A DNA stretch of 27,166 nt from Candidatus Geohabitans tengchongensis (GCA_031459625.1 JAVKIH010000033.1:1-27166); one strand, 5' to 3'; positions 19,606 to 23,993 are shown, counted from the first letter of the stretch. Program-made: numbers and translations. Notes: generated by a model not told the origin, from the sequence alone.

Positions 19606-19699
19606 CGCATCGTCATTCAACGCAGGACGGGCCCCGGCTCTTCCCGTCCTCCCCCTGTGGCTCCCGAGGGGTAATCCCGGGGCATAAGGGGCTGGGGGG

Positions 19700-19772
19700 C
19701 CGGCGGGAGGCCGGGCAGCGGAGCTCGGCCCGGCGGGATGCCGGGCAGCAGAACTCGGCCCGGCGGGACGCC
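19700..19772. repeat. 30-nt tandem repeat (about 2.4 copies) of palindromic units, REP-like
   Basis: GCCGGGCAGCGGAGCTCGGCCCGGCGGGAT followed by GCCGGGCAGCAGAACTCGGCCCGGCGGGAC. Each unit has GCCGGGC/GCCCGGC arms. Confidence 0.8.
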
Positions 19773-19877: not shown

Positions 19878-20903
19878 ATGGACGATCTCTTCGACGTCAC
19901 GATCATCGGCGCGGGGCCCACGGGCCTGTTCGCCGCCTACTACGCCGGCTTTCGCTCGCTCCGCACGAAGATCGTGGACAGTCAGCCCGACCTGGGCGGG
20001 CAGATCACCGCCCTCTACCCGGACAAGTACATCTACGACGTGGCCGGGTTCCCTAAGATCCTCGGCAAGGACCTGGTGCGCAACCTGGTGGAGCAGGCGA
20101 TGCAGTACAACCCCGAGGTCCTCCTGAACGAGCAGATCCAGACGGTGGAGGACGTCGGGGACCGGGCGCTGGCGCTGCGGTCGGACGGCCGGGTCCACTA
20201 CACCAAGGTGGCCATCATCACGGCGGGGATCGGGGCTTTCACCCCCAAGACCTTCAAGCGCCCGGAACTGGACCGGTACATGGGCAAGGGGCTCTACTAC
20301 GCCGTCAAGAACAAGGAGGACTTCCGGGACAAGCGGCTGCTGGTCATCGGGGGCGGCGATTCGGCCCTCGACTGGGCCCTGGGCCTGATCCCCTACGCCC
20401 GGCAGATCACCCTGATCCACCGGCGGGACCAGTTCCGCGCCCACGAGGACAGCGTGCGCAAGCTGTTCGACTCCCCCATCACCGTGCGGCTCTTCTACGA
20501 GTTGAAGGAGCTGCGCGGGGACGACCAGGTGCGGGAGGCCGTCATCTTCGACAACCGGACGAAGCAGGAGGAGGTCCTGGAGGTCGACGCGGTGCTGGCC
20601 TTCCTCGGGTTGATCAGCAACCTGGGGCCGATCAAGCACTGGGGGCTGCAGATTGAGGACGACTCCATCGTGGTGAACACGAAGATGGAGACGAACCGGC
20701 CGGGGATCTACGCGGCCGGAGACATCGTCACCTTCCCGGGCAAGCTCAAGCTCATCGCCACGGGCTTTGGGGAGGCGGCCACGGCGGTGAACAACGCCGC
20801 CGCCTACATCAACCCGCGGGCGAAGGTCTTCCCCGGACACAGCAGCACGATCATGGAGCAGAAGGAGAAGAAGGCCACCCCGGCCGGGGCATCGGCGGGG
20901 TGA
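19878..20903 (+). CDS. Ferredoxin--NADP(+) reductase, thioredoxin-reductase-like (YumC type)
   Basis: IIGAGPTG, GGQITALYPDKYIYDVAGFP, GGGDSALDW, IHRR, AAGD, IATGFGEA, PGHSS; no CxxC. GGAGG lies upstream of ATG 19878. Confidence 0.93.
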   Translation: MDDLFDVTIIGAGPTGLFAAYYAGFRSLRTKIVDSQPDLGGQITALYPDKYIYDVAGFPKILGKDLVRNLVEQAMQYNPEVLLNEQIQTVEDVGDRALALRSDGRVHYTKVAIITAGIGAFTPKTFKRPELDRYMGKGLYYAVKNKEDFRDKRLLVIGGGDSALDWALGLIPYARQITLIHRRDQFRAHEDSVRKLFDSPITVRLFYELKELRGDDQVREAVIFDNRTKQEEVLEVDAVLAFLGLISNLGPIKHWGLQIEDDSIVVNTKMETNRPGIYAAGDIVTFPGKLKLIATGFGEAATAVNNAAAYINPRAKVFPGHSSTIMEQKEKKATPAGASAG

Positions 20904-21270
20904 TGAGGGAAGGGCCCATGTCATCCCCGTGGCCCCGGCCACACGTGATACGACCGAACACTACCTGCCCCGGACCCAGTTGTGTTCGGTAGTGTGTTCG
21001 GTAGACTCGCCAATCTGCCTGACTGGCTGGGCGGCGCTGCGTTCCCGCCTGCCCTGTAAACTCGAAGTTCGGTCCGGCCTCCAATCCGGCCAAGAAAATT
21101 TTTCGCCCGCCTTGCCCCCCCTGAAAACGCCCAGCCCATGCCGATAACTCATAACGGAAAACCAGGCAGAGTGTGCCGAGGAGGGGAGCGGCCTGGGGAT
21201 CACGCCAGCTCCGTCAGCCCAACCACGCCCACACGCGCTCGATCAGGACGCGGCGCCACGAGGAGGTTCC

Positions 21271-22938
21271 GCGCCAGCCAGGGATTCCGGGCGGCTGCTG
21301 CGGGTCATCGCCCGCCTGCCTGATGGCGCCCTTCGCAGCCGGGTCGAGCGGCTGGCGGGCCGCGAGCGCCGGGCCACGACCCTGCTCGTCGCCTACCTGG
21401 CCGAGCTGGACGCTCGCCGCTTGCACCTGGCGGACGGGTATCCCTCGCTCTTCGCCTACTGCACTCAGGCCTTGCACCTCTCTGAGTACGCCGCCTACCA
21501 CCGCATCCAGGCGGCCCGGACGGTGCGTCGGTTTCCCGTCCTCCTCGGCGAACTGGCCCGGGGGCACCTGACGCTCACCACGCTGAGCCTGCTGGCTCCG
21601 CACCTCACCGCTGCCAACCTCCAGGCGCTGCTGGCCGAGGCGCGCGGGGCCAGCAAGCGGGCCGTGGAAGCGCTGGTGGCGCGCCTGCAGCCTCGCCCTC
21701 CCGTCCCGGCCTCCGTACGCCGTCTCCCAGCCCCGGGAGGGCCGGCGCACCCAGCCCCGGGAGGTTCGGCACACCCAGCCCTGGGAGATTCGGTGCAGCC
21801 TGTCCAGGGAGGTCCAGAGTGCTCCGTCCCGGGAAGTCTGGCGTCCCCTGTCCCCGGAGGTCCAGCACCTCAGCAAGGCCAGCCACCGACGCCGACACCG
21901 AGTCCAACGCTCGGCGTCGACGGGATTCCAGCAGGGGTGGCTGGAGACACCCCGGTCGCCCACGCGCCCGCGGGAGATGAGACAGACCGTGTCCCACCCG
22001 GGACGCCACCCGGCGGCCCCGCGCGGTTTCTGAGGCCGGGCAGCTGCGGCGGCGGGCCATCGGGCGCTGTCACTCCCCTGGCGCCGACGCGCTACCGTGT
22101 CCAGTTCACGGCCGGCCCGGAGACCTATGCCAAGCTGAAGCAGTGCCAGGACCTCCTGCGCCACCAGATCCCCGGCGGTGACCTGGCCCAGCTCTTTGAC
22201 CGAGCCCTGACCGCATTGCTGCGAGAGCTGATGTGCCGGAGGGTGGGCACCCCGCTCCGGCCGGGGCCGGCCCGGACCACCCCGGCGGCGGCTCCCCCGG
22301 CAAGGATCGTGCGGCCGCATGCCGCCACCGCTCCCACGCCCGGAGACGCATCGGCTTCGAATCCCGGCGCACCGACACTCCCACCGGGGCCTTCGCGTCA
22401 CATTCCGGCCGCTGTCCGTCGGGTCGTGTGGGAACGGGACGGCGGCCAGTGCGCGTTCGTCAGTGCAGACGGGCGTCGGTGCCCGGAACGGGGATACCTG
22501 GAATTCCACCACGTCCGCCCCTACGCCCTGGGCGGACCGGCCACCGTGGAGAACATCCAGCTCCGCTGTCGCGCCCACAACGGCTACGAGGCGGACCAGA
22601 TCTTCGGACCGCCCCCCGCGCGGCGCTCAGGGCCGTCCCAACAGAGCGATCAGCGGGCGGCTGCGGATCAGCGCGCGGCTGCGGATCAGCGGACGGCTGC
22701 GGAACGGACGACTGCGGAACGGGCGACTGCGGATCGGGCGACTGCGGATCGGGCCATGAGGCCAGGGCGGAGCCGCCTAACACCGGGACCTGCCGAACAG
22801 GCCCCGCCCCGGACCCAGTTGGCCTCAGCAGCGCAGGCAGGCTCGGCCCCGGCGACCACCCCTGCCCGGAGCCCTGATCAGCCCGGCAGGACCGCTGCGC
22901 AGACCGGCCGGCCTGGCGAGCACAGCCATCCACCCTGA
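21271..22938 (+). CDS. DUF222-like N-terminal domain + C-terminal HNH endonuclease; start codon unclear
   Basis: RLPDGALRSRVERLAGRERRATTLLVAYLAELDARRLHLADGYPSLFAYC N-domain; PLAPTRYRVQFT middle block; HIPAAVRRVVWERDGGQC...C...LEFHHVRPYALGGPATVENIQLRCRAHN HNH domain. The frame is open from 21148 and the first canonical start is TTG 21421. Confidence 0.85.
   Translation, partial: APARDSGRLLRVIARLPDGALRSRVERLAGRERRATTLLVAYLAELDARRLHLADGYPSLFAYCTQALHLSEYAAYHRIQAARTVRRFPVLLGELARGHLTLTTLSLLAPHLTAANLQALLAEARGASKRAVEALVARLQPRPPVPASVRRLPAPGGPAHPAPGGSAHPALGDSVQPVQGGPECSVPGSLASPVPGGPAPQQGQPPTPTPSPTLGVDGIPAGVAGDTPVAHAPAGDETDRVPPGTPPGGPARFLRPGSCGGGPSGAVTPLAPTRYRVQFTAGPETYAKLKQCQDLLRHQIPGGDLAQLFDRALTALLRELMCRRVGTPLRPGPARTTPAAAPPARIVRPHAATAPTPGDASASNPGAPTLPPGPSRHIPAAVRRVVWERDGGQCAFVSADGRRCPERGYLEFHHVRPYALGGPATVENIQLRCRAHNGYEADQIFGPPPARRSGPSQQSDQRAAADQRAAADQRTAAERTTAERATADRATADRAMRPGRSRLTPGPAEQAPPRTQLASAAQAGSAPATTPARSPDQPGRTAAQTGRPGEHSHPP
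21727..21870 (+). repeat. Six degenerate 24-nt in-frame tandem units (PAPGGPAH-like)
   Basis: CCAGCCCCGGGAGGGCCGGCGCAC, CCAGCCCCGGGAGGTTCGGCACAC, CCAGCCCTGGGAGATTCGGTGCAG, then three more diverged copies. Confidence 0.85.
22648..22755 (+). repeat. In-frame tandem repeat: 3 x 18 nt then about 3.6 x 15 nt
   Basis: DQRAAA-DQRAAA-DQRTAA-ERTTA-ERATA-DRATA-DRA. Confidence 0.9.
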
Positions 22939-22939
22939 G

Positions 22940-22995
22940 GACCCTGACCCGACCTGAAAACCGTGACCCGACTTGGGGACCATGACCCGACCGCG
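22940..22995. repeat. Three 19-nt-period intergenic direct repeats with core TGACCCGAC
   Basis: TGACCCGAC at 22945, 22964 and 22983, each preceded by ACCn. Confidence 0.85.
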
Positions 22996-23015: not shown

Positions 23016-23993
23016 CTACGCCGAGGTGGCGGGGCGCCTGCTCCGGTACGCCAGGACGGCCTGGGCCTGCTCGTCGGCATGGTATGAGGAGCGGACGAGC
23101 GGACCGGCCTCCACGTACCGGAAGCCCCGCCGCAGTCCCTCCGCCTTGAGGGCGGCGAACTCCTCCGGGGTGTAGTACCGGTCGATGGGGTGGTAGCCCG
23201 GGCCAGGGCGCAGGTACTGGCCGAGGGTGAGGACGTCGCAGTCGACGGCACGCAGGTCGTCCATCGTCTGCAGGACCTCCTCCCAGGTCTCGCCCATGCC
23301 CAGGATGATCCCGCTCTTGGTGAAGCAGGTGTAGCCCCACTCCTTGACCCACCGCAGCAGCCGGAGCGAGCGGTCGTAGTTGCCGCCGTGGCGGACAATG
23401 GCGAAGACGCGCCGCACGCTCTCGATGTTGTGGTTGAGGATCTCGGGGCCGGCCTCCAGCACAGTGTGGAGCGCGGCGGGATCGCCCTTGAAGTCGGGGA
23501 TGAGCACCTCCACGGTGCACCCGGGCACGTAGGCGTGGATGCGCCGGATCGTCTCCGCGTAGATCGCCGCGCCTCCGTCGCGCAGGTCGTCGCGGTTCAC
23601 GGAGGTGATCACCGCGTGGCGGAGGCCCATTTGCTGGACGGCGCGCGCCACCCGCTCGGGCTCCTCCAGGTCCAGCTCGCTGGGCAGGCCGTGGGCGATG
23701 GCGCAGTAGGCGCAGTTGCGCGTGCAGATGTTCCCCAGGATGAGGAAGGTGGCGGTGCGGCGCTCCCAGCAGTCGCCGATGTTGGGACAGCGGGCCTCCT
23801 CGCAGACCGTGTGGAGGGCCTGGGTGCGCATGATCCCCACGAGCGCCTGGTAGTTGGGCCCGCTGGGGAGGCGCACCTTGAGCCAGGGAGGACGCCGCAG
23901 CGGCACGGCGCGCCCCTGCGGGTCGAGGGTGTAGAGGGGGCGCTCCGACGTCTGCGCGTCGGGCACGGCGGAGCCGTCGCGAGCGATCGCCAT
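23016..23993 (-). CDS. lipA: Lipoyl synthase
   Basis: [12 protein letters not shown] (CX4CX5C), CTRNCAYC (radical SAM), VLIPDF, NHNIE, GQYLRP, VRSSYHA. Confidence 0.97.

Follow-up and report, generated by a model that had tools for sequence, protein, structure and literature searches.

The window, a stretch of 27,166 nucleotides from Candidatus Geohabitans tengchongensis (GCA_031459625.1, JAVKIH010000033.1:1-27166), carries an open frame for a predicted HTH-RHH-HNH protein, flanked by a gene for a pyridine nucleotide-disulphide oxidoreductase (FNR-like) and by lipA. This setting had been proposed in a first-pass annotation of the sequence, and gene assignment of the neighbours confirmed it. 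The locus contains the following features.

19878-20903, + strand: FNR/TrxB-like oxidoreductase gene, host, left neighbour.
20954-20989, no strand: genome-specific module around the left palindrome, with arms CCGAACAC / GTGTTCGG.
20962-20981, no strand: left 20-bp palindrome, decayed, with the right arm intact (GGACCCAGTT) and the left arm five mismatches from perfect; putative left element end, the family similarity boundary falling at the same edge.
20982-21147, + strand: decayed leader of the window copy, with an A-rich tract at about 21092-21105 and, reading from homologs, a putative degenerate -35-like box at 21112 and a putative degenerate extended -10-like box at 21139-21148.
21148-22938, + strand: open frame of 596 codons for the predicted HTH-RHH-HNH protein; start codon uncertain.
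21361-21693, + strand: N-terminal helical domain with a predicted fold like the ParB/KorB/Spo0J DNA-binding domain (structure model and fold search).
22063-22233, + strand: middle strand-helix-helix domain, a predicted homodimer with antiparallel strand pairing, ribbon-helix-helix-like (dimer prediction).
22393-22605, + strand: HNH nuclease domain with an intact Cys/His/Asn motif.
22801-22820, no strand: right 20-bp palindrome, decayed, with the right arm intact and the left arm degenerate, preceded by CCGAACAG at 22793; judging from family boundaries, putatively at or near the right end.
23016-23993, - strand: lipA, host, right neighbour.

Two repeat copies bracket the HNH domain, at 20954-20982 and 22793-22821. 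They are 25/29 identical and share an exact 16-nt core, as first annotated; the repeat pattern matched twice in the window, with 0 matches expected from 100 shuffles. Rather than being a common dispersed repeat, the exact 16-mer has just two sites in the 2.76-Mb genome, both in the window. The right copy, with its palindrome, does lie in the low-complexity tail after the HNH domain, but the frame 21148-22938 continues for 117 nt beyond it. What required revision was the repeat unit. The copies had been described as a 29-nt direct repeat; each is instead a half-decayed member of a family of 20-bp self-complementary palindromes of the type AACTCGGTCCGGACCGAGTT, to which the 12-nt core of the repeat led us. 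Longer direct repeats at both ends, considered as a general rule, were rejected, such modules being seen in some subfamilies only. The would-be palindrome that had been read from the core, AACTGGGTCCGGACCCAGTT, occurs exactly twice elsewhere in the genome (C15:31601 and C44:36107), and a CCGAAC-plus-arm motif occurs 13 times in the genome and 0 times in the reversed control. In a close strain, both right arms of the window palindromes are kept and the left arms are variable. The window also contains tandem repeats: three 19-nt units between the HNH stop codon and lipA (22936-22992; fewer in close strains), and 24-nt and 15/18-nt units in linker and tail (21726-21797 and 22654-22749), whose copy number varies in frame among strains. 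Two 30-nt direct repeats lie 5' of the FNR-like gene (19697-19761).

Searching the genome with the pattern AACTVGKYCCGGRMCBAGTT, with one mismatch allowed, returned 10 sites versus 0 in the control. Three of these adjoin the other two HNH paralogs (C2 on both sides, C28 upstream), and the remaining seven lie elsewhere, mostly intergenic between ordinary genes. Solo modules adjoining tRNA genes were observed in G000 (C13:6379-6398, C44:36107 and C23:131883), one of them between tRNA-Gly and tRNA-Cys. The same pattern gave 1 to 21 palindromes per genome. Among 30 relatives, the HNH gene was present in 13/18 genomes of the same family and 0/12 of other families. All 13 HNH-positive relatives carry the palindrome, as do 2/5 HNH-negative genomes of the same family (one of these with an element remnant) and 2/12 genomes of other families, with a single site each. 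In the gene-free genome G012, two of three palindrome sites are remains of left ends, and one of the two retains the opening codons of the gene. The expectation that the gene is multicopy was borne out, and the gene is also patchy among relatives: a single family includes genomes with no copy and genomes with more than 10, with three loci in this genome and a maximum of about 13 (G032).

The flanks of homologs, which had been named as the place to look for a conserved motif, carry it on both sides. A palindrome was found upstream of the HNH gene in 55/102, downstream in 54/109 and on both sides in 27/84 non-redundant loci, taken from six phyla, counts that are descriptive and carry no test because the detector was built from these same loci and kin loci are not independent. 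They derive from 127 non-redundant loci (of 183), searched up to 330 nt upstream and 160 nt downstream; the controls gave 5/2040 for shuffles and 0/295 for lipA-locus windows. About half of the loci have no detectable palindrome on any given side, and a strict search detected no site, full or half, at 25/70 intact leaders, some of these being missed variants. A wider scan listed 80 of 262 loci, and these came from Armatimonadota, Acidobacteriota, Myxococcota and other deltaproteobacteria, Thermodesulfobacteriota, Eisenbacteria and Chloroflexota.

Is it the bases or the symmetry of the palindrome that is kept? The outer AACT/AGTT is conserved, and inner positions change on both arms together (the detector required 8/10 pairs); pair 7, for example, is GC in 74, TA in 18, CG in 13 and AT in 3 cases, with 1 mismatch. 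Because inner bases vary freely while symmetry is kept, a structure or a copying process fits better than base reading. The left and right variants of an element agreed in 22/27 cases versus 10.8 when permuted, most clearly in G032. The palindrome flanks hold no conserved GTAG/CGTC tag and nothing conserved beyond G/C at position 11, and a helical periodicity of the distance from palindrome to -35 box was looked for across loci and not seen. As separate observations, L075, L076, L091 and L184 have a third palindrome within the gene, in a linker-coding part, with the frame still open, and in L189 and L196 (G035) the region upstream of the HNH genes is occupied by arrayed 450-nt inverted repeats that contain bulged variants of the palindrome.

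We then asked where similarity between copies ends. In 16/18 pairs of same-genome paralogs, similarity starts 9 to 16 nt left of the centre of the left palindrome, that is, at its outer edge. On the right, the limit lies at +9 to +15 (outer edge) in 9/28 pairs and at +34 to +54 (24 to 44 nt past the edge) in 17/28, so that the right boundary of the copied unit is more than one fixed point. Ends at the palindrome centre were rejected, being true of a few copies only. There was no target duplication: abutting duplications measured 0 to 3 nt in 27/27 cases, like permuted pairs. In L191 (1033-1135 and 2655 onward), about 100 nt of a short-chain dehydrogenase-like 5' end lies on both sides of the element, about 80% alike, and could be either a long target duplication or a paralog. 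Across the family, elements measure about 1.4 to 2 kb.

Partial copies and other derivatives agree with a mobile unit. At C12:216485-216631, this genome carries the 3' end of the C2 paralog at an unrelated site (119/121 and 137/147 identical), a recent 3'-end copy. A 75-nt solo module is 99% identical to the right end of an element in a sister genome, and further 3'-end fragments, anchored at the downstream end, were seen. In two Acidobacteriota genomes, a 43-44-nt end module is present at unrelated sites in sharp-ended copies that are 88 to 100% alike. Paired direct end modules can also enclose single unrelated genes. This is so at L234:809-1519 and L235 (the Acidobacteriota genomes G031 and G033), where the genes differ at the same orthologous site, and at L252:1450-2660 of G008, where the enclosed gene encodes a beta-propeller. 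Most end modules have no attC arms; an end module at L238:1449-1555, and one whole element (L180 flanks), lie in the loop of hairpins that we take to be attC-like, in cassette-like gene arrays. Some copies are internally deleted and keep both ends or the leader (L088, L253, L266), and many of the solo copies are simply what decayed elements have left behind (remnants include L260, L261, L266, L268 and L253).

Full copies within one genome are only 63 to 90% identical, and no identical full copy was found within a genome. Neither a circle junction, among the joints listed from assembled contigs, nor an exact empty site was found. Three HNH-free orthologous sites in sister genomes (G031/G033) were rejected as empty sites, since longer stretches had been replaced or deleted there rather than cleanly lost, and an apparent empty site of a solo module is really a deletion ending at the palindrome centre. 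In a quick tree restricted to loci whose frame is fully open (90 of 127), copies sort by host lineage, and all 11 G032 copies form one clade (support 98). Viral contigs and phages yielded no relative, and plasmids yielded two HNH-only partial matches. Because copies group by host lineage and none lies in the viral, phage and plasmid sets, spread looks slow and within genomes.

The leader has a conserved architecture of its own. The left palindrome lies mostly 28 to 75 nt before a conserved TTGACA, and of the 84 loci with an upstream TTGACR, 70 have an extended -10-like box 163 to 169 nt behind it (53/56 with a stricter pattern). This box is mostly directly before the start codon, in loci that span phyla (e.g., L092, L110, L195 and L208). 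The spacer between the boxes has a mean identity of 34.5% over 43 non-redundant loci. A structured RNA was rejected as an explanation because there was no folding signal (z mean -0.1 in 53 loci) and no Rfam match other than tRNAs in 10 loci. The spacer opens with a T-tract and closes with an A-tract (4.6/10 inverted matches versus a background of 2.5 ± 0.44). A leader piece between degenerate direct repeats was rejected as a family-wide feature (3.75/12 at spacing 18 versus a background of 2.9 ± 0.46). In L208, 16 nt separate the boxes, and the junction falls at a GACA repeat common to most of its clade. For the fixed spacer length we can offer guesses only, namely wrapping of the DNA in a nucleoprotein complex or a switch that works by deletion; this split promoter with its constant 166 nt is a puzzle apart from that of mobility. 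The window copy is missing the spacer of about 150 nt of intact family members, and two close strains have a deletion of 20993-21115.

What does the predicted protein look like? The HNH frame has no in-frame ATG before its conserved N-terminus; a CTG at 21193, with GAGGAGG (21178) before it, is a candidate start codon. The protein model (mean pLDDT 65.7) has three confident or partly confident parts and low-complexity linkers. For residues 24-134, the top four of 48,161 chains were ParB/KorB/Spo0J proteins (Z 8.0, 8.0, 7.1 and 6.8; rmsd 8.0, 3.2, 3.8 and 2.7 over 113, 97, 97 and 91 residues), a match whose Z of 7 to 8 is middling for a helical domain and which leaves the ParB CTPase domain outside. 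Foldseek returned nothing at E ≤ 0.001. The middle domain scored 0.74 as a homodimer (best control, 0.00), with runs agreeing on at least 88% of contacts and pLDDT of at least 79. The mark for this score was reached by 20/30 solved pairs and 1/23 single chains, and the pass may be owed to likeness to solved RHH dimers. RHH_5 matched weakly in 1/27 members, the middle domain alone had no Pfam match, and RHH structures were absent among the best 50 fold-search matches, for which the model of the middle region is of low confidence.

The HNH domain (PF01844) was recognized in 27/27 members, and its motif is intact in the window and in 131/150 representatives. The label DUF222-like did not stand: PF02720 matched at 14.6-14.9 bits, below the Pfam curated cut-off of 24.4, over model positions 4-90 of 306, and 4/27 members matched weakly (best E 0.0018). 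We also rejected IscB/OMEGA (HEARO), a system whose protein combines RuvC with HNH, since NF040563 scored 17.6 versus 175 bits, in the HNH part only, and no structured guide RNA was supported. PHROGs recognized the HNH domain only, PADLOC gave 0 families for 3 proteins, and ESM Atlas returned HNH clusters of Myxococcota, Acidobacteriota and Bdellovibrionota with no named function. The family comprises 7,762 clusters at 50% identity (E ≤ 1e-30). Searches of this genome revealed no HUH transposase. Y1_Tnp (PF01797) was absent from this genome (94% complete) and from 12/13 HNH-positive relatives; it was found in 4/12 other-family genomes, and those lack the palindrome.

Has the window copy moved recently? 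An empty site with a single repeat copy at the fnr-lipA interval of relatives had been suggested as a check, and none was found. The lipA loci of 29 relatives include 11 that show fnr; fnr and lipA abut in 7/11 (10 to 96 nt) and have other genes between them in 4/11. None of these 11 intervals holds an HNH gene or a palindrome at up to 2 mismatches, and they are too distant for a base-level reading of the junction. In one contig from another organism, fnr is joined to lipA with 1516 other letters between. The fnr-lipA junction is an insertion spot. Differing other genes were seen at this junction in L038, L041, L045 and L057. Contigs from four runs were compared, one of which may be the source of this DNA; strains from the three other studies all carry the element in place, with deletions in leader and tail. 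Every word sampled from the window was present in one RNA run, which is no evidence of expression. The copy is old and fixed in close strains, with no sign of recent movement.

Compared with a 93%-identical strain, the 273 conserved-core codons differ by 16 synonymous and 5 non-synonymous changes (dN/dS 0.12, p 6e-6), with a dS of 0.070 versus 0.052 for fnr and 0.069 for lipA. By this substitution pattern, the window protein is under purifying selection. The window copy is cis-decayed, its ends and leader eroding and its protein kept. A protein kept at a stationary copy is not explained by selfish copying alone; decay of the ends together with a kept protein suggests that the host may benefit or may be subject to addiction.

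Of the roles first suggested for the repeats, which also included att-like sites, ends of an element or a recognition site of its own protein is the best reading, because the gene is multicopy and patchy, the motif flanks it on two sides and paralog similarity stops at the motif; recent movement of the window copy itself was not seen. We consider it probable that the window locus is an old copy of a widespread family of palindrome-bounded elements with a self-encoded mover. The predicted HTH-RHH-HNH protein of the element likely binds and nicks at these palindromes, which would probably allow the element, fragments of its ends and, occasionally, cargo genes to be copied to new sites. The family is likely a new kind of palindrome-bounded element, moved by nicking and host repair with no known transposase. 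The exact steps are tentative, and we would sooner expect them to need correction than to stand as drawn. A protein dimer would bind the palindrome through its ParB-like domains, and the HNH domain would nick at or near the right palindrome. A host polymerase would then displace a strand; copying that stopped at the left palindrome would give a full copy, and copying that stopped earlier would give 3'-end fragments. Host repair would integrate the hairpin-ended strand without duplication. Fold-back copying at hairpin ends would also account for both the perfect symmetry and the agreement of the two ends.

Could the palindromes instead be operators only? Here a ParB/KorB-like protein would regulate itself, perhaps by looping between sites on the two sides of the gene, the gene would spread by ordinary rearrangement in variable regions, and solo palindromes would be leftovers of lost genes. 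KorB/ParB domains bind palindromic sites, and KorB/ParB are the top fold matches of the N-terminal domain. The position of the left palindrome, mostly 28 to 75 nt before the conserved TTGACA, the remnants at L260, L261, L266, L268 and L253, and the finding of no mobility intermediate are also in keeping with operators. However, paralog similarity ends at the palindrome edge, near-identical sharp-ended modules stand at unrelated sites, inner bases vary freely with symmetry kept, and cargo genes lie between modules, so that we regard operators alone as unlikely. A domesticated host function, such as nuclease attack on incoming DNA or the catalysis of local rearrangement, would bring rare multiplication and would make the palindromes targets, as REPs are for RAYT. 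The dN/dS of 0.12 with dS equal to that of the neighbours, the clustering of copies by host lineage and the absence from the searched plasmid, phage and viral sets agree with this, and RAYTs behave likewise according to the available portions of 10.1101/119735. Against it stand the spread in copy number within one family, from none to more than 10, many broken copies and the lack of a PADLOC match. We think domestication improbable as the whole account, more so than operators; it is compatible with a palindrome-bounded element and not exclusive of it.

Least probable, and hardly to be expected, are REP-like palindromes moved in trans by another enzyme (RAYT/TnpA or an integron integrase) with HNH genes as passengers. 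One module in an attC-like hairpin loop and some elements in cassette-like arrays would suit such a mover, but most modules have no attC arms, there is no GTAG tag, and palindrome presence tracks the HNH gene. The distribution of Y1_Tnp also argues against it, the gene being absent here and in 12/13 HNH-positive relatives and present in 4/12 palindrome-lacking genomes of other families.

How does a palindrome-bounded element with its own HNH protein compare with known systems? Like REPtrons, it combines a nuclease gene flanked by short palindromes with palindromes dispersed between genes. Mostly vertical inheritance, as described for REPtrons in the accessible parts of PMC8266576 and 10.1101/119735, is a further shared trait. 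The RAYT enzyme belongs to the HUH tyrosine class; its gene is usually present once, and the hairpins have a GTAG tag on their 5' side. HNH goes unmentioned in the available part of a survey of GTAG/CGTC repeats (PMC3733652). The present family differs from REPtrons in its HNH nuclease with predicted HTH and RHH, its multiple copies and loop-less 20-mers, and its lack of a GTAG/CGTC tag; its protein matches HNH rather than Y1_Tnp.

Elements of the IS200/IS605 and IS91/ISCR/Helitron types move as single strands, are hairpin-ended and make no target duplication. Common to them and to this family are hairpin-capable ends, no target duplication and one-ended, downstream-anchored fragments (features of IS200/IS605 and IS91-type elements partly from the accessible text of PMC8266576). 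In contrast to IS200/IS605 and IS91/ISCR, there is no HUH/Y1/Y2 transposase, and one self-complementary sequence serves at both ends. Since HNH domains do not become covalently linked to DNA, host enzymes would have to do the joining.

The REP13E12 or DUF222-HNH genes of mycobacteria are likewise multicopy with a C-terminal HNH domain, and there is weak N-terminal DUF222 similarity; REP13E12 is named as a repetitive element in the available portions of PMC10589994 and PMC1931498. The family differs by a DUF222 match below cut-off (87/306 positions), an extra RHH-like domain and 20-bp palindromic ends, which those portions of PMC10589994 and PMC1931498 do not describe for REP13E12. The HNH domain folds like the phage GVE2 and Gme nickases (Z 6.4 and 5.5), and small HNH domains of such type are strand-specific nickases (PMC3592412, in the part available), whereas no relative of the present protein was found in phages or viral contigs. 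Homing endonucleases home into a cut empty allele; here, many unrelated loci are occupied and the putative site is kept on both sides. With integron cassettes the family has in common that direct-repeat modules enclose one gene each and that the enclosed gene can differ at a given site, but its gene-bearing modules have no attC boxes and the element has no integrase gene. No description of palindromes or elements of this kind was found in the mainly open-access literature searched.

HNH endonuclease genes of this multicopy type abound, yet no means by which they move has been described. In its boldest form, which we consider possible and rather doubtful, more so than the individual steps above, the family would be a new class of bacterial mobile element and a cassette shuffler comprising thousands of protein clusters. 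An HTH-RHH-HNH nickase, helped by host repair, would take the place of a transposase; the element, its ends and captured genes would be copied between 20-bp palindromes by way of hairpin-ended single strands; and a split promoter would gate expression, its -35 and -10 boxes staying 166 bp apart until looping or deletion joined them. With the 20-bp end defined, a binding domain predicted and a nuclease present, a single protein and a single oligonucleotide suffice for a direct test. Were the proposal true, transposition could proceed chemically without a transposase, REP-like repeats would have a second origin, gene cassettes would have a further route of exchange, and a compact site-specific nickase would be at hand.
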